From Escherichia coli (GTDB lineage Bacteria; Pseudomonadota; Gammaproteobacteria; Enterobacterales; Enterobacteriaceae), in the NCBI RefSeq assembly GCF_045037415.1, contig NZ_CP173438.1: a stretch of 64,000 bases of DNA; one strand, written 5' to 3'. The notes under the pieces were generated by a model. It had not been told where the DNA came from, searched no databases, and saw nothing but the letters and a program-made list of their open reading frames with translations. Of the stretch, positions 1 through 34,678 are shown piece after piece (within the stretch, counting starts at the first letter, position 1; every line of letters begins with the position of its first letter). The position numbers and the translations under genes were made by a program.

Positions 1-226
1 CGAGGATTTTTCTGGCTTCGCTACGTTTTTCACGAGCGTCGGCTAGCGTTACATCGGGGTATACGCCAATAGAAAGCATCTTTTCTTTACCAGCAAAGCG
101 GTACTTCATACGCCAGTATTTAGAACCATTAGTGTTAATCAGTAGATACATACCGCCGCCATCAGCAAGTTTATAGGGCTTTTCTTTTGGTTTTGCGGTT
201 TTCACTTTAATATCGGTTAATGCCAT
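1..226 (-). CDS. Site-specific tyrosine integrase, P4-like, N-terminal 75 codons only; gene continues beyond the left edge of the window
   Basis: Manual translation of the minus strand from ATG at 226 (RBS GGAGGA 7 nt upstream) gives MALTDIKVKTAKPKEKPYKLADGGGMYLLINTNGSKYWRMKYRFAGKEKMLSIGVYPDVTLADAREKRSEARKIL, the characteristic arm-DNA-binding N-terminus of P4-family integrases; no stop before position 1. Not in the ORF track because it is open at the edge. Confidence 0.8.
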   Translation of the reverse strand, partial: MALTDIKVKTAKPKEKPYKLADGGGMYLLINTNGSKYWRMKYRFAGKEKMLSIGVYPDVTLADAREKRSEARKIL

Positions 227-524
227 GACATCCTCCGGCTTTTAATGAATTCATGTTCCTGAGGGGGACTTCTGCCAGTAATTAACCTGATACCCCCAAT
301 GCACCCCTTGTATAACAAAGATGTTGTTGAAAGCCGTTGTTATATATCATATTTTACCAATTATGGGGGTGCTGATATTTCAATAGGAAATAATACCCCC
401 TAAAGTACCCCCAAAAGCAACTTGATACGGGGTGAAGTCGGTTGACTTCTGGATACAAAGGAATCCTGATACACAAGGGATTAGAAGGGGGGGTTGACAT
501 CGGGAGAGTTCAGAAGATGTTAAT

Positions 525-619
525 TGGCGGAAGATCACAGGAGTCGAACCTGCCCGGGACCGCTGGCGGCCCCAACTGGATTTGAAGTCCAGCCGCCTCA
601 CCGGAGACGACGATCTTCC
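525..619 (-). tRNA. selC: tRNA-Sec (selenocysteine, anticodon UCA), 95 nt with encoded CCA
   Basis: Reverse complement of 525..619 reads GGAAGATCGTCGTCTCCGGTGAGGCGGCTGGACTTCAAATCCAGTTGGGGCCGCCAGCGGTCCCGGGCAGGTTCGACTCCTGTGATCTTCCGCCA, matching the E. coli selC sequence as I recall it, including the long extra arm and 8-bp acceptor stem. Confidence 0.93.
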
Positions 620-4916: not shown

Positions 4917-6470
4917 ATGCAAATGATTACCTCGCGACAAAACAGATTATTACGATTCCTTTTACCTCGAAGGGAATATACGACTATTGTTACGATTGCC
5001 GGCTATTTAAATGTTTCGGAAAAAACCATTCAACGTGATTTACGTTTACTTGAGCAATGGCTGGGACAATGGAGAATAAATGTTGAGAAGCGTGCTGGCG
5101 CGGGTGTGATGTTAAGCGCGGAGAATATTGCTGATTTGCTGCATCTTGATCATTTGTTGGTGGCAGAATGTGAAGAGATTGATGGTGTAATGAATAATGC
5201 CAGGCGCGTTAAAATAGCGTCGCAGTTATTAAGTGAAACACCGAATGAAACGTCGATCAGTAAATTGTCAGAACGCTATTTTATCAGCGGAGCCTCTATT
5301 GTTAATGACCTGAGAGTAATTGAGTCCTGGCTTGCGCCGTTGGGGTTATCGTTGATCCGCAGCCCAAGTGGTACGCATATTGAAGGTAGTGAAGGGCAAG
5401 TCCGACAGGCAATGGCATTACTGATTAACGGCATTATTAACCATAATGAGCCGCAAGGTGTCGTGTATTCACGTCTGGATCCCGGAAGCTATAAAGCATT
5501 AGTCCATTATTTTGGAGAGGAAGAAGTGTTATTTGTCCAGTCATTGTTACTGGATATGGAAAATGAATTAAGTTGGTCTTTGGGAGAACCTTATTACGTT
5601 AACATTTTTACTCATATCCTTATTATGATGTATCGCAACACGCACGGGAATGCGTTATCAAGAGAAGAAGATCAAACCAGGCAATATGATGAAAATATCT
5701 TTAATGTTGCCAGTCAGATGATTCATAAGATAGAACAACGAATTGCACATACATTGCCCGATGATGAAGTCTGGTTTATTTATCAATATATCATTTCATC
5801 AGGTGTGGCGATTGATGGACAAAAAGATGTTAGCATTATTTCACATATGCAGGCCAGCAATGAAGCGCGTCTGATTACCTGGCGTTTAATTACGGTATTC
5901 AGTGACATCGTGGACTGCGATTTTAGTGAAGACAGCGCATTATATGATGGCTTATTGGTGCATATTAAACCGCTGATTAACCGACTAAATTATCGTATTC
6001 ATATCCGTAATCCATTGCTGGAAGATATTAAAGCAGAATTAGCGGATGTCTGGCGGTTGACGCAATATGTGGTGAATCAGGTATTTAAAACCTGGGGTGA
6101 GAATGCGGTGAGCGAGGATGAAGTGGATTACCTGACCGTTCATTTTCAGGCTGCGATGGAACGGCAAATTGCCCGTAAACGCGTATTACTGGTCTGTTCA
6201 ACCGGAATCGGAACTTCGCATCTACTGAAAAGCCGTATTCTGCGAGCATTTCCTGAATGGACGATTGTTGATGTTATTTCAGCAGCGAATTTATCACAGG
6301 TTTTGCCTGACAATATCGAACTGATTATTTCGACCATTAATTTGCCTACAGTCACTATGCCGGTCGCTTATGTTACCGCTTTTTTTAATGATGCCGATAT
6401 TAAGCGGGTCACTGAAATGGTGATTACGGAAAAATTACATCATGCGACGTCTCGGGTCGTTGAAATTTAA
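4917..6470 (+). CDS. PRD-containing, PTS-regulated transcriptional activator (MtlR/LicR-like): N-terminal HTH, PRD region, C-terminal EIIB(Gat)-like domain
   Basis: 517-aa ORF; N-terminal HTH-like segment (TIVTIAGYLNVSEKTIQRDLRLLEQWL); C-terminal RKRVLLVCSTGIGTSHLLKSRI resembles the phosphorylatable Cys loop of galactitol-type EIIB domains found in PRD activators; AT-rich gene heading a PTS operon. Confidence 0.6.
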   Translation: MQMITSRQNRLLRFLLPRREYTTIVTIAGYLNVSEKTIQRDLRLLEQWLGQWRINVEKRAGAGVMLSAENIADLLHLDHLLVAECEEIDGVMNNARRVKIASQLLSETPNETSISKLSERYFISGASIVNDLRVIESWLAPLGLSLIRSPSGTHIEGSEGQVRQAMALLINGIINHNEPQGVVYSRLDPGSYKALVHYFGEEEVLFVQSLLLDMENELSWSLGEPYYVNIFTHILIMMYRNTHGNALSREEDQTRQYDENIFNVASQMIHKIEQRIAHTLPDDEVWFIYQYIISSGVAIDGQKDVSIISHMQASNEARLITWRLITVFSDIVDCDFSEDSALYDGLLVHIKPLINRLNYRIHIRNPLLEDIKAELADVWRLTQYVVNQVFKTWGENAVSEDEVDYLTVHFQAAMERQIARKRVLLVCSTGIGTSHLLKSRILRAFPEWTIVDVISAANLSQVLPDNIELIISTINLPTVTMPVAYVTAFFNDADIKRVTEMVITEKLHHATSRVVEI

Positions 6471-6496
6471 TGTCAGAATTTTATGAGGTATGACGA

Positions 6497-6967
6497 ATGG
6501 ACATAACAAAAATCCTGAATACGAATCGCGTTATTTTAGATATGCAAGCGACGAATAAAGCGGAGGCGATTGAAGAATTAACTAATCTTCTCAAAAAAGA
6601 TGGTGCGATCGATTGTCGGGAAACCTTTATTAAAGATGTCTGGCAGCGCGAAGCGGAAGGCTCGACTGGTTTTGAAAATCATATTGCGATCCCGCATGGT
6701 AAATCTTCAGCTGTGATTAATACTACGCTGGCAATTGGCCGTACCCGCCAGGATATTCCCTGGGAAACGCTGGATGGCAGTAGCGTGCGCTGTATTATTT
6801 TATTTGCGGTACGTCTTGAAGATCAAAATACCACCCATATCCGTTTACTTTCCCAGGTCGCGGGCGCGCTGGCGGATGATGACATCATAGAACAATTGTT
6901 AGTTGAGACGAGTCCGCAAAAAATCATTGATCTCTTTAGTCAGTATGCACAATCCGATGTCTGCTAA
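6497..6967 (+). CDS. PTS EIIA component, fructose/mannitol (type 2) family
   Basis: 156-aa ORF with the EIIA-2 His motif context (NHIAIPHGKS); RBS-spaced 26 nt after the regulator gene. Confidence 0.7.
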   Translation: MDITKILNTNRVILDMQATNKAEAIEELTNLLKKDGAIDCRETFIKDVWQREAEGSTGFENHIAIPHGKSSAVINTTLAIGRTRQDIPWETLDGSSVRCIILFAVRLEDQNTTHIRLLSQVAGALADDDIIEQLLVETSPQKIIDLFSQYAQSDVC

Positions 6968-6984
6968 ATAACAGGGAGTATGTC

Positions 6985-7299
6985 ATGAATATTGTCTGTG
7001 TTGCCGCCTGTACGGCGGGTATTGCTCATACCTATATTGCTCGTGAAAAGTTAATCAAAGGAGCAAAAGCTCTGGGCCATACCATTAAAGTTGAAACCCA
7101 GGGAACCATTGGTACAGAAAATGAATTACAGGCGGCAGATATCTCTGCTGCTGACGTCGTGATTCTTGCTGTAGATGTGAAAATAAAAGGAGAAGAACGC
7201 TTCACCAATAAACGTATTGTGCGAGTAAAGACAGAGATCGTCATTAAGTCGCCCGTTCAATTTCTTGAAAAGGTCGAAAAATCACTGGGAAACAAATGA
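6985..7299 (+). CDS. PTS EIIB component, fructose-type
   Basis: 104-aa ORF; N-terminal active-site Cys loop (NIVCVAACTAGIAHT) typical of fructose-family EIIB (FrwB-like). Confidence 0.7.
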   Translation: MNIVCVAACTAGIAHTYIAREKLIKGAKALGHTIKVETQGTIGTENELQAADISAADVVILAVDVKIKGEERFTNKRIVRVKTEIVIKSPVQFLEKVEKSLGNK

Positions 7300-7323
7300 T
7301 CCTTATACTGGAGGGATCTTAAT

Positions 7324-8415
7324 ATGAAAGAAAATAAAATTACGGTTTCACAGGAAATTAAAAAACATTTATTAACCGGCATCTCGTGGATGATACCCCT
7401 TATTGTGGCCGCCGGGATATGTATTGCGTTGGGGCAAGTTCTTGGCGGTACAGATGTTGGTGAAAAAACAGGAACAATCCCGTGGATGCTTAATCAGATT
7501 GGCGGCTGGGGAATGGGGCTGATTGTGCCGCTGATTAGCGCGGCAATTGCCTATTCTATTGCCGATCGTCCCGGATTTGCCCCGGGCCTGATTGTCGGCT
7601 TTCTCTGTGGGCAAATCCATACCGGATTTATTGGCGGTATGTTGGGTGGTTTCCTGGTGGGCTACACCATTTTGCTACTTAAACGCTATATCCGCCTGCC
7701 GCAGTCGATGCAAGGACTCATGCCAATCATGGTGTTGCCGGTATTAAGCACCATTATCGGTGGGCTGTTAATGATGACGCTGATTGGTAAACCCATCGCC
7801 TGGTTACAAGAAGCACTGATTCATTTGCTCGAGTCGATGCAGGGCGGATCGCGCTTCCTGATGGGGGCCATACTTGGCGCGATGGCAACCTTCGATTTCG
7901 GTGGTCCGGTCAACAAAACCATGTCGCTGTTTTCCGATGGCTTGCTGGTCAGTGGCGTCTACGGACCAGAAGCCGTGAAATTTGTCGGCTCAATCATCCC
8001 TCCGTTTGGCATCACACTTTCGTTCTTACTGACACGCCATAAATACACCCGTGCGGAGCGCGAGGCGCTGAAAGCCGCGTTTCCGATGGGGATCTGCATG
8101 ATTACTGAAGGAGTCATTCCGATCGCCGCGCGTGACCTACTGCGAGTAGTGGGATCTTGTGTGGTGGCATCGGCGGTCGCGGGCGGCTTAATCATGGTGT
8201 GGGGCGTGGAGAGTCCGGTTCCGCATGGCGGCATGTTTGTTGTGCCTCTGTTCACCCATCCTCTGCTGTTTTGCCTGGCGCTGGGTATAGGCACGGTGAT
8301 TTGTGGCGTGATGCTTTCACTCTGGAAGAAACCGGTAACGGAACGCGACGAAGAGTTTGACGAACTGAGCGATCAAAAGCTGAAAGATGAAGAGATCACT
8401 TTCACCCTCGAATAA
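7324..8415 (+). CDS. PTS EIIC permease, fructose-like family
   Basis: 363-aa polytopic membrane ORF, similar in size and hydropathy pattern to FrwC-type IIC; follows the IIA and IIB genes. Confidence 0.7.
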   Translation: MKENKITVSQEIKKHLLTGISWMIPLIVAAGICIALGQVLGGTDVGEKTGTIPWMLNQIGGWGMGLIVPLISAAIAYSIADRPGFAPGLIVGFLCGQIHTGFIGGMLGGFLVGYTILLLKRYIRLPQSMQGLMPIMVLPVLSTIIGGLLMMTLIGKPIAWLQEALIHLLESMQGGSRFLMGAILGAMATFDFGGPVNKTMSLFSDGLLVSGVYGPEAVKFVGSIIPPFGITLSFLLTRHKYTRAEREALKAAFPMGICMITEGVIPIAARDLLRVVGSCVVASAVAGGLIMVWGVESPVPHGGMFVVPLFTHPLLFCLALGIGTVICGVMLSLWKKPVTERDEEFDELSDQKLKDEEITFTLE

Positions 8416-8426
8416 CCGGAGGCCCT

Positions 8427-9278
8427 ATGTTTGCCGATATGAAAAGTATGGTGATGAAAGCCTGGCATGAACATTACGCCTTGCTGGCGATCAACTGTAT
8501 GAATCTGGAAAGTGCTCACGCAGCTATCCGCGTGGCGGAGAAGAATCGCGCTCCGATCATTCTCAATCTCTATCAGGGGCATCTGGCGCATTTTCCTGCA
8601 CCCGTCGCGGCGGCAGTGGTTAAAACGCTCGCGGAATCTGCCTCAGTACCGGTCGCTCTGGCGCTTGATCATGGCAAAAATCCGGACTGTATTCGTCAGG
8701 CGTTTCGTGCTGGTTTCAGCGGATTAATGATTGATGCTTCTGCTTTTCCCCTGGAGGAAAACGTGCGCCAGACCAGGGCGGTGGTGGAACTCGCCGCCAG
8801 CGCGCAGCTCTGCGTGGAAGGCGAACTGGGCCATCTGGCAGATGCGCCGCGTTACGACCAGGCCGCCAATGCAGACCTGATGACGCAACCCACTGATGTG
8901 GAACCGTTTATCGCGCAGACAGGCATTGATCTACTGGCCGTCTCGGTAGGCACGGCGCACGGCATGTACGCGCCTGGCGTTGTACCTGCTATTGATTTTC
9001 AGCGTCTGGCGGAGATTTTCCACTGCTCGAGCGTGCCTCTGGCATTACATGGCGGTAGCGGTACGCCGTTCGATCAGCTCCAGCTCTGTACGACTCTGGG
9101 GGTAGCAAAAATCAACGTGGGGGCGGCCATTTTTGAACGGGGGAAATCCGCGCTCCTGCATACCCTCTGTCACGATATATCCATTGAACTGGTGGACGCG
9201 CTGAAAGCTATGGAACTGGCCTTCGAAGAAGCGATTACACCGTATTTACAGGCGAGCGGCGCTATCGGCAAAGCCTGA
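8427..9278 (+). CDS. Class II ketose-bisphosphate aldolase family protein (paralogue 1, divergent N-terminus)
   Basis: 283-aa ORF retaining class II aldolase metal/catalytic motifs (LALDHG, VEGELG, GTAHG, LHGGSG) but with an N-terminal region diverged from the canonical substrate-binding motif. Confidence 0.6.
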   Translation: MFADMKSMVMKAWHEHYALLAINCMNLESAHAAIRVAEKNRAPIILNLYQGHLAHFPAPVAAAVVKTLAESASVPVALALDHGKNPDCIRQAFRAGFSGLMIDASAFPLEENVRQTRAVVELAASAQLCVEGELGHLADAPRYDQAANADLMTQPTDVEPFIAQTGIDLLAVSVGTAHGMYAPGVVPAIDFQRLAEIFHCSSVPLALHGGSGTPFDQLQLCTTLGVAKINVGAAIFERGKSALLHTLCHDISIELVDALKAMELAFEEAITPYLQASGAIGKA

Positions 9279-9358
9279 TTCATTTTCTGTCATGGCCTTT
9301 ATGCCAGTGCAATAACGCACCGGCAGGGCGGACTACACGCTGAAACTGGAGATTTAAC

Positions 9359-22727: not shown

Positions 22728-25061
<2,334 letters not shown>

Positions 25062-25312
25062 GGTTCTCTCCCTAAAAATCTGTCTGGAAGGGTAGCGATT
25101 TGTGCGCATTGTCACGATTGAGATTTTTTAAGGAGAGAATAGATTGATAATTTGTAGTTATGTGAAATTGCTATTTTCTGTAGTAAGAATGCATTTTTCT
25201 GATTTTGTGATAAGTAAAATGCATTAGAAAAAGTATGGAGTAAATAAATATGAGGACGAAACTATATGCGTAGCGCCGCTGTAATTAACAACGGCCTACG
25301 GAGATATGTCGC

Positions 25313-26176
25313 TTACTCGATATTCTGAATCTGCTCGCGCATCTGTTCAATCAACACTTTCAGCTCGATGGCGGAGTTTGTCACTTCGGCGTTGATAGAT
25401 TTCGACGCAAGAGTGTTCGACTCGCGGTTGAACTCCTGCATCATAAAGTCCAGACGACGACCAACGGCTTCTTTTTTCTTCAGAATGTTGTAGGTTTCTT
25501 TGACATGCGCTTCGAGGCGGTCCAGTTCTTCGGCAACGTCAATTCGTTGTGCCAGCAGAACCAACTCCTGCTCCAGACGGTTGTTTTCCAGTTGCACCTG
25601 AGCATCTTCCAGCTTCGCTACCAGACGCTCACGCTGCCATTGCAGGATTTCCGGCATATGGGCGCGGACTTTGACCACTTCGGCGGTGACGCCTTCCAGA
25701 CGCTGCTCAATCAACACTTTCAGCGCCTGACCTTCGGTTTCGCGCGCGATGATAAAGTCATCCAGGGTGCCATCCAACGCCGCGAGAATTTCAGCTGCAA
25801 TCGCGTCGAGATCTTGCTCCTGGGCTGCCATCACGCCCGGCCAGCGTAGAATATCAACCGGGTTGATTTCTCCTTCGTCGCTCTGCATTTTTACCCAGTT
25901 CGCGGCAGTTACCAGCTGTTTAGCCAGTTTTTCGTTGAGGATCAGCTCACCTTGCGCGCTAACATCTGGCTCATAGCGCAGAGTACATTCCACTTTACCG
26001 CGCGTCAGGCGAGAACGAATACGCTCGCGAACGACAGGTTCAAGGCTACGGAACTGCTCCGGCAGACGAAAGTAAGTTTCCAGATAACGCTGGTTTACCG
26101 AGCGCATTTCCCAGGTTGCGCTCCCCCATTCACCCTTGATTTCACGCCGGGCGTAGGCGGTCATACTGCGGATCAT
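25313..26176 (-). CDS. yicC: YicC-family stress-induced protein (putative RNase adaptor/endoribonuclease)
   Basis: 287-aa ORF MIRSMTAYARREIKGEWGSATWEMRSVNQRYLETYFRLPEQFR, matches YicC. Confidence 0.9.
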   Translation of the reverse strand: MIRSMTAYARREIKGEWGSATWEMRSVNQRYLETYFRLPEQFRSLEPVVRERIRSRLTRGKVECTLRYEPDVSAQGELILNEKLAKQLVTAANWVKMQSDEGEINPVDILRWPGVMAAQEQDLDAIAAEILAALDGTLDDFIIARETEGQALKVLIEQRLEGVTAEVVKVRAHMPEILQWQRERLVAKLEDAQVQLENNRLEQELVLLAQRIDVAEELDRLEAHVKETYNILKKKEAVGRRLDFMMQEFNRESNTLASKSINAEVTNSAIELKVLIEQMREQIQNIE

Positions 26177-26302
26177 AGACGTTCCTGTTTATAAAAGGAG
26201 AGGTGGAAGGATTATAGCCATCGATGCCTTGTCAGGATAGGAATAACCGCCGGAAGTCCGTATAATGCGCAGCCACATTTGTTTCAAGCCGGAGATTTCA
26301 AT

Positions 26303-27020
26303 ATGCGTCCAGCAGGCCGTAGCAATAATCAGGTGCGTCCCGTTACCCTGACTCGTAACTATACAAAACATGCAGAAGGCTCGGTGCTGGTCGAATTTGG
26401 CGATACCAAAGTATTGTGTACCGCCTCTATTGAAGAAGGCGTGCCGCGCTTCCTGAAAGGTCAGGGCCAGGGCTGGATCACCGCAGAGTACGGTATGCTG
26501 CCGCGTTCTACCCATACCCGTAACGCGCGTGAAGCGGCGAAAGGTAAGCAGGGTGGACGCACAATGGAAATCCAGCGTCTAATCGCCCGTGCTCTTCGCG
26601 CGGCAGTAGATTTGAAAGCACTGGGTGAGTTCACCATTACGCTGGACTGTGACGTGCTTCAGGCTGATGGTGGCACGCGTACCGCTTCGATTACGGGTGC
26701 CTGCGTGGCGCTGGCAGATGCGCTACAGAAGCTGGTGGAAAACGGCAAGCTGAAAACTAATCCAATGAAAGGGATGGTAGCCGCGGTCTCTGTCGGGATT
26801 GTGAACGGTGAAGCGGTTTGCGATCTGGAATATGTTGAAGACTCTGCCGCAGAGAACCGACATGAACGTAGTGATGACCGAAGACGGGCGTATCATTGAA
26901 GTGCAGGGGACGGCAGAAGGCGAACCGTTCACCCACGAAGAGTTACTCACCTTGTTGGCGCTGGCCCGAGGGGGAATCGAATCCATTGTAGCGACGCAGA
27001 AGGCGGCGCTGGCAAACTGA
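26303..27020 (+). pseudogene. rph: Ribonuclease PH gene interrupted by a +1 frameshift (1-nt insertion near 26855); frame 1 terminates at 26897-26899, while the conserved C-terminus continues in the next frame to 27020
   Basis: Frame 1 encodes [14 protein letters not shown]...EYVEDSAAE then [18 protein letters not shown]; the adjacent frame (ORF 26808..27020) encodes [54 protein letters not shown], the normal RNase PH C-terminus. The junction GAGAACCGAC carries one extra A relative to an in-frame GAG-ACC-GAC. Confidence 0.8.
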
Positions 27021-27027
27021 TTTTTAA

Positions 27028-27053
27028 GGCGACTGATGAGTCGCCTTTTTTTT
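27028..27053 (+). terminator. pyrE attenuator (intrinsic terminator hairpin between rph and pyrE)
   Basis: GGCGACT / AGTCGCC stem with GATG loop followed by eight T, between the rph stop at 27020 and the pyrE start at 27086; consistent with the known rph-pyrE translation-coupled attenuation. Confidence 0.75.
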
Positions 27054-27085
27054 GTCTGTAGAAAAGTAAGATGAGGAGCGAAGGC

Positions 27086-27727
27086 ATGAAACCATATCAG
27101 CGCCAGTTTATTGAATTTGCGCTTAGCAAGCAGGTGTTAAAGTTTGGCGAGTTTACGCTGAAATCCGGGCGCAAAAGCCCCTATTTCTTCAACGCCGGGC
27201 TGTTTAATACCGGGCGCGATCTGGCACTGTTAGGCCGTTTTTACGCTGAAGCATTGGTGGATTCCGGCATTGAGTTCGATCTGCTGTTTGGCCCTGCTTA
27301 CAAAGGGATCCCGATTGCCACCACTACCGCCGTGGCGCTGGCGGAGCATCATGACCTTGACCTACCGTACTGCTTTAACCGCAAAGAGGCAAAAGACCAC
27401 GGTGAAGGCGGTAATCTGGTTGGTAGCGCGTTACAAGGACGCGTAATGCTGGTAGATGATGTGATCACCGCCGGAACGGCGATTCGCGAGTCGATGGAAA
27501 TTATTCAGGCCAATGGCGCGACGCTTGCAGGCGTGTTGATTTCGCTTGATCGTCAGGAACGCGGGCGCGGCGAAATTTCGGCGATTCAGGAAGTTGAGCG
27601 TGATTACAACTGCAAGGTGATCTCTATCATCACCCTGAAAGACCTGATTGCTTACCTGGAAGAGAAGCCAGAAATGGCGGAACATCTGGCGGCGGTTAAG
27701 GCCTATCGCGAAGAGTTTGGCGTTTAA
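27086..27727 (+). CDS. pyrE: Orotate phosphoribosyltransferase
   Basis: From [36 protein letters not shown] gives 213 aa; PRPP-binding motif [13 protein letters not shown]. Confidence 0.93.
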
Positions 27728-34314: not shown

Positions 34315-34666
34315 AGTAAATAGCTGACTTATGGATGTGCTGGGGATTCTATGTATTTAGCTGTGGCTTTACCATTACTTTTCCCGTTTTTGACTTAAAT
34401 AGCAATTTACCCGCCAATTCTTGCTGAACATCTATACTTTTTTTGTATTTTTATGCGATTCATTGATTTCTGCAGTACGTGCAGGAAGGAATCGCAGAGC
34501 AACAGTAAAAAGAATATGGTTGCTAATGATTTTATTTGATTGATTTCTTTATTGAAAATCAACAATGTGCTTAAAAATCATTCGGGTCGGATTGCCGCGA
34601 AAGAAGTGATACACTAGCGCGTCAATATCAGTGCGGTATCAGTATTCAGGTAGCTGTTGAGCCTGG

Positions 34667-34678
34667 GGCGGTAGCGTG
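34667..34678 (+). promoter_or_regulatory. ops element (GGCGGTAGCGTG) within the JUMPstart region upstream of the waaQ operon; RfaH recruitment site
   Basis: Exact 12-nt match GGCGGTAGCGTG about 50 nt upstream of the waaQ start, in the 413-bp divergent waaA-waaQ intergenic region. Confidence 0.65.

Follow-up and report, generated by a model that had tools for sequence, protein, structure and literature searches.

The first 524 bp of the Escherichia coli DNA analysed here (64 kb in all, hereafter the window) are very probably attL, the int-proximal junction of an island of about 40-45 kb that is inserted at the 3' end of selC and belongs to the family of the Tia PAI, GI-selC and GIselC17584/1. 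selC is a textbook hot spot for islands, and at the left edge of the window the core chromosome stops and strain-variable DNA starts at the selC boundary. The junction, the integrase allele, the 16-bp direct repeat, the GGGGG-centred repeats and the island family are all already known and common. The sole detail added by this analysis is an explicit side-by-side match of the repeats in the spacer between int and selC with those of the annotated attP of phage P4. Placing the boundary is useful for annotating the window and guards against over-reading bases 1-524; biologically it brings nothing new. The features discussed are listed in Table 1.

Table 1. Features at the selC end of the window.
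Feature	Position	Strand	Basis and remarks
Integrase gene, first 75 codons, arm-type DNA-binding domain	1..226	-	translation, PF13356; continues past the window edge
Shine-Dalgarno GGAGGA	231..236	-	4 nt upstream of the int ATG (226-224); read from the sequence
Second tandem pair of putative arm-type repeats, ACAAGGGGTGCA TTGGGGGTATCA	288..311	-	adjoins the int start
Single putative arm-type site, inverted, + strand TTATGGGGGTGCT	361..373	+	inverted repeat relative to 404-416
Tandem pair of 12-nt putative arm-type repeats, CTTTTGGGGGTA CTTTAGGGGGTA	394..417	-	107 nt from the core; repeat search
selC, tRNA-Sec (UCA)	525..619	-	ARAGORN (anticodon TCA), Rfam RF01852; intact
attL core, 3'-terminal 24 nt of selC, TTCGACTCCTGTGATCTTCCGCCA	525..548	-	
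Direct repeat, first 16 nt of the attL core	548-533	-	in relatives, a second copy stands at the distal end of the island

The sole tRNA that ARAGORN found in the window is tRNA-Sec at 525-619 on the minus strand. The Rfam tRNA-Sec family (RF01852) matches at 529-619 on the same strand with 83.8 bits, against a gathering score of 47, and the gene is 100% identical to selC of K-12. Identity with K-12 is lost one base past the 3' end of the tRNA and is regained just upstream of yicL. selC and the yicJ-yicI side are common to the window and K-12, but in K-12, where the site is empty, the yicT pseudogene and setC stand directly after selC without an annotated integrase. Relative to this empty site, the DNA of the window is foreign from the selC 3' end onward, as in a selC island, and the G+C content of the island side is 42% compared with 49% for the whole window. 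When the integrase was compared by tblastn with the 683 bp downstream of K-12 selC, no significant match was found. The statement of the first-pass annotation that K-12 lacks an integrase at selC was therefore correct, only the yicT pseudogene and setC being present there. The idea that yicT is itself an integrase remnant was rejected on the same tblastn result.

The integrase reading frame is stop-free over 75 codons, down to base 2. Its 75 residues match the Pfam family Arm-DNA-bind_3 (PF13356) over residues 3-74 with E = 1.6e-25, far beyond chance. On the minus strand, AGCCGGAGGATGTCATG contains GGAGGA (236-231), a 4-nt spacer and the ATG (226-224), and the GGAGGA is invariant across six alleles; a simple consensus scan of 1-1000 for sigma-70-like promoters found none on the minus strand that could serve int. 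In P4, Int represses its own expression. Bases 227-524 make up 298 bp from the int start codon to the tRNA 3' end, and both genes lie on the same strand. The first-pass annotation had placed the N-terminus of a P4-type integrase next to the selC 3' end, with its own RBS, 298 bp from the tRNA, in the orientation of selC and running out of the window. All of this was borne out by the domain match, by the position of the junction at the tRNA 3' end, by the GGAGGA 4 nt from the ATG and by a frame still open at the window edge, and the distance is exact.

The rest of the gene can be read in close relatives. Over 64 kb, only 4 mismatches and one 1-bp indel separate the window from IPCEC48 (NZ_AP026794.1), and over 1-879 the two are identical. 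The IPCEC48 integrase is the 396-aa protein WP_001218917.1, and the DNA of the shared part is identical to the window. Its domains are Arm-DNA-bind_3, Phage_int_M (PF22022, 1.5e-35) and Phage_integrase (PF00589, 8.3e-28). This 396-aa integrase of the relatives is 44% identical to P4 Int (E = 6e-115) in an alignment that is continuous across the 75 residues of the window, and its R241, H330, R333, H356 and Y366 align with the corresponding P4 residues. The full-length protein shares with P4 Int both the domain order and the aligned catalytic residues. By sequence, the closest phage integrases are of the Sf6/HK620 IntS type (about 49-51% identity over 97% of the length, same domain organisation). 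These come from complete temperate phages, which integrate at other tRNA genes, and the attB of P4 lies in a leucine tRNA gene, likewise a site other than selC.

The first-pass annotation had also proposed a search for a direct repeat of the 3'-terminal 15-20 nt of selC at the distal end of the island, and such a repeat was found in three relatives. The 16-mer TTCGACTCCTGTGATC has exactly one further copy in each of them, although chance alone would give 0.00-0.03 matches per locus, and the two copies are separated by 44.7 kb in IPCEC48, 41.6 kb in UID2309220015 and 43.9 kb in ST131 strain 751. In all three, the second copy leads into the sequence natively found downstream of selC. In IPCEC48 the second TTCGACTCCTGTGATC copy adjoins yicL and reads TTCGACTCCTGTGATC-GCCAAAATGCCTCT, in which GCCAAAATGCCTCT is the native sequence downstream of K-12 selC minus TTCC. 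Searches with the full 24-nt selC end (up to 3 mismatches) or its last 16 nt (up to 2 mismatches) recovered only selC itself; for the 24-nt end, this is because the distal copy has a 4-nt deletion (TTCC). The possibility that the distal repeat had been lost was considered and rejected, as the exact TTCGACTCCTGTGATC is present in 3/3 relatives. A distal copy joined to native sequence is the classical outcome of integration at a tRNA 3' end. The Tia PAI and related selC islands have the same 16-bp TTCGACTCCTGTGATC and the same TTTGGGGGTACTTTAGGGGGT repeat as the window, and both have already been published for a selC island (PMC6174562).

Within the 298-bp spacer, three groups of repeats were located (Table 1). 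The pattern TACCCCCWA has 3 matches in the 64-kb window, all three inside the spacer, whereas 0.46 are expected for the whole window. The repeats were compared with the annotated attP of P4. In P4 as in the island, tandem pairs of 12-nt GGGGG-centred repeats flank the core on both sides, a single inverted copy is added on the int side, and int begins close to the core and is oriented outward. The int-side pair of P4, ATTGGGGGCATA ATTGGGGGCATC, stands 112 nt from the core, against 107 nt in the window. The pair on the other side lies 53 nt from the core in P4; in IPCEC48, the distal side of the island has a tandem pair TTTGGGGGTTCTTATGGGGGT, which precedes the core there by about 50 nt. The inverted arm repeat of P4 stands at the int start, on the int side of the core. 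The two systems differ in the arm motif, which is TGGGGGTA in the selC island and TGGGGGCA in P4, and in the distance from the int start to the core, which is 298 nt here and about 150 nt in P4. The match with the annotated arm sites of P4 supports our reading of the spacer repeats as probable arm-type binding sites of the integrase. A core in the tRNA 3' end (525-548), repeats at 288-311, 361-373 and 394-417 and an adjacent int together have the composition of an att site.

Six selC-integrase alleles were aligned (89% mean column identity). The core-proximal pair does not vary among those that retain this part of the spacer: TTTTGGGGGTACTTTAGGGGGT of the 394-417 pair is unchanged in 5/6 alleles, and the inverted site at 361-373 is conserved in five of the six. 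The int-proximal block GGGGTGCATTGGGGGTAT is found in 6/6 aligned alleles and varies at two positions, one with T in place of C in EC958 and EAEC 042, the other with A in place of G in BEN5202; it was kept in the O157 allele even though 105 nt of spacer were lost there. In O157:H7 PA20 (locus 1725-1919), this 105-nt deletion takes the core-proximal pair and the inverted copy, and it might affect integrase binding or excision of the O157 island. A second short motif occurs three times on the plus strand, as AACCTGATAC, AACTTGATAC and ATCCTGATAC at 284-293, 419-428 and 463-472. Its copies alternate with the arm-type repeats and are mostly conserved across the six alleles; they could extend the arm sites or serve an accessory factor.

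By analogy with P4, the following course of events can be proposed. The N-terminal domain of the tyrosine integrase, the part visible in the window, would bind arm repeats of the TTGGGGGTA type, and its central and catalytic domains would bind the core. The integrase would then have recombined the attP of the island with the last 24 nt or so of selC. The island would have brought a replacement for the tRNA 3' end, which would explain why selC is intact. The displaced original 3' part of selC would now be attR, about 42-45 kb away and adjoining yicL.

We determined how widely this DNA is distributed among complete E. coli genomes. The island-side 524 bp are present in 1473 of 5426 (about 27%), always on the chromosome and as a single copy in all but one carrier genome; 117 genomes match at 99% identity or more. 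In the sampled matches, the gene under the 524 bp is nearly always annotated as 'tyrosine-type recombinase/integrase'. No complete genome in the collection is fully identical to the window. The first 25 kb of the window are essentially 100% identical to ST131-like genomes, and the background is an ST131-like B2 strain.

Like the DNA seen here, the Tia PAI of ETEC H10407, the ST131 GI-selC and the STEC GIselC17584/1 are inserted at the 3' end of selC and have a P4/CP4-type integrase adjoining the tRNA. A 46-kb tia PAI at selC with direct repeats on its flanks has been described (PMC7545054) and matches the island of the relatives; GI-selC of ST131 has been described as well (PMC3203889, PMC4134206). 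Islands of the Tia PAI type measure about 42-46 kb, and those of the nearest relatives carry tia, with or without leoABC, and a phosphoethanolamine transferase. The window holds only the first 524 bp of such an element, and the relatives differ in their middle modules. The gene content of the island was read in three of them, IPCEC48, UID2309220015 and ST131 strain 751, in which the nearest-relative island is 41.6-44.7 kb long and is bounded at its far end by the direct repeat of selC 3' sequence. With their 396-aa integrase, these relatives agree with the first-pass view of the window edge as the int-proximal boundary of a selC island.

In the relatives, a TPR protein, the phosphoethanolamine transferase and tia make up the int-proximal module, behind which stands an integrase remnant; ST131 strain 751 has leoABC in addition. 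tia is present in IPCEC48, Eco889, UID2309220015 and ST131 strain 751 and absent from the GI-selC of EC958. Examples of what the variable middle segment holds are two different type I restriction-modification systems, RhuM, MobI and nanXY, along with genes resembling P4 beta and cII and numerous IS elements. The relatives examined have different systems in the slot that runs from the tia-side integrase remnant to the CP4-like distal module. It is quite unlikely, though conceivable, that the unseen island carries in its middle segment a defence or virulence module absent from the sequenced relatives. At the distal end stands a CP4-type module (GTPase, DUF932, antirestriction, YeeU/CbtA, DUF4942). 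A small helix-turn-helix protein of the AlpA/Vis type also belongs to the island. In the island of ST131 strain 751 (locus 24374-27304), a 'beta family protein' and an 'sce7726 family protein', the family names of P4 beta and cII, adjoin an internal integrase remnant. This points to the remains of a P4-type defence hot spot within the island.

What lies behind the same junction could be other cargo: an EC958-type GI-selC with BREX and Afa/Dr, the LEE, SHI-2, an island of the PAI I536 type or an undescribed mosaic. The DNA behind the conserved int-TPR module is indeed highly mosaic, at least 80% of the int-proximal 25 kb of IPCEC48 is present in only 16 of the 5426 complete genomes, and GI-selC is reported in the ST131 papers to vary within the clone. 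EC958 illustrates the point, as its GI-selC has only int and the TPR gene in common with the relatives and continues with a LacI/MFS/GH31 cluster, BREX and Afa/Dr. Against this, int allele and spacer of the window are 100% identical in IPCEC48, IPCEC42 and strain 219, whereas over the int-proximal stretch identity falls to about 93% for the EC958 allele and about 89% for that of O157. All carriers of WP_001218917.1 that were examined (IPCEC48, Eco889, UID2309220015) have the module of TPR protein, phosphoethanolamine transferase and tia, and so does strain 219, whose 524 bp of int-proximal DNA are identical to the window. Different cargo is thus unlikely. Since the int allele is identical to that of the relatives, Tia-type cargo is our best guess for the island of this genome, but it is not certain.

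That only attL and a truncated or otherwise damaged int remain of an old island, its cargo wholly or largely lost by deletion, is very unlikely. The window ends at codon 75 and shows nothing past it, so its own integrase could be disrupted further on, and integrase remnants are common inside selC islands. A gene name that gives only the domain, instead of 'tyrosine-type recombinase/integrase', was found in 2 of the 30 best-matching relatives and in 2 of 40 sampled further down the ranking; at selC such names may mark truncated int alleles. On the other hand, int is full-length in all seven relatives of this int family whose selC locus was inspected, and the closest genomes, nearly identical over 64 kb, have an island of 42-45 kb. 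The first-pass annotation had named two outcomes that would speak against its reading: an integrase remnant without an island, and a translated segment unlike arm-binding domains. Neither was found, as every relative examined has a full-length int and an island, and the 75 residues of the window match PF13356 by themselves.

A P4-like satellite prophage or a phiR73-type retronphage at selC, in place of a genomic island, is a most improbable reading, although the integrase and the att layout are P4-like and homologues of P4 beta and cII are present inside the island of one relative. The P4-like cryptic prophage phiR73 is described as using selC (Sun et al. 1991, as cited in PMC6174562). However, the islands of the three closest relatives examined have no annotated alpha primase, sid, psu, delta or retron reverse transcriptase. 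The element behind their integrase is a mosaic island of 40-45 kb with metabolic, virulence and IS content, unlike the 11.6-kb satellite phage P4. An island of the Tia PAI family therefore remains the preferred interpretation of bases 1-524. We infer that its integrase is active and that the island is still mobile. In the relatives, attR is 4 nt short and IS elements and integrase remnants are numerous, so that the island may also be fixed and no longer mobile.

Several observations were made elsewhere in the window. At 880-881, upstream of the annotated yicJ start at 912, the window has TC where IPCEC48 and Eco889 have CT, and neither the genome nor the metagenome contig collection contained an exact match to a 40-nt probe carrying this variant. 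In rph (about 26303-27020), an extra A at 26855 gives GCAGAGAACCGAC compared with GCAGAGACCGAC in IPCEC48. The RNase PH frame consequently ends early, at 26899, and the C-terminal part stands in another frame (26808-27020), with pyrE at 27071. The frameshift recalls the rph-1 frameshift of K-12, which is polar on pyrE, although the position is different; the extra A could be a real mutation or a sequencing error. Between yicI and yicH, which are adjacent in K-12, the window has a 7-kb operon (about 4917-11860) that is absent from K-12 and encodes a BglG-family regulator, PTS IIA/IIB/IIC, two ketose-bisphosphate aldolases, a ROK kinase and a cupin-type isomerase. It corresponds to the frz operon of ExPEC (PMC12928451). 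A JUMPstart RNA (RF01707, 55.2 bits) is present at 34640-34678 on the plus strand, where it would be expected: upstream of rfaQ, in the waa cluster for the LPS core.
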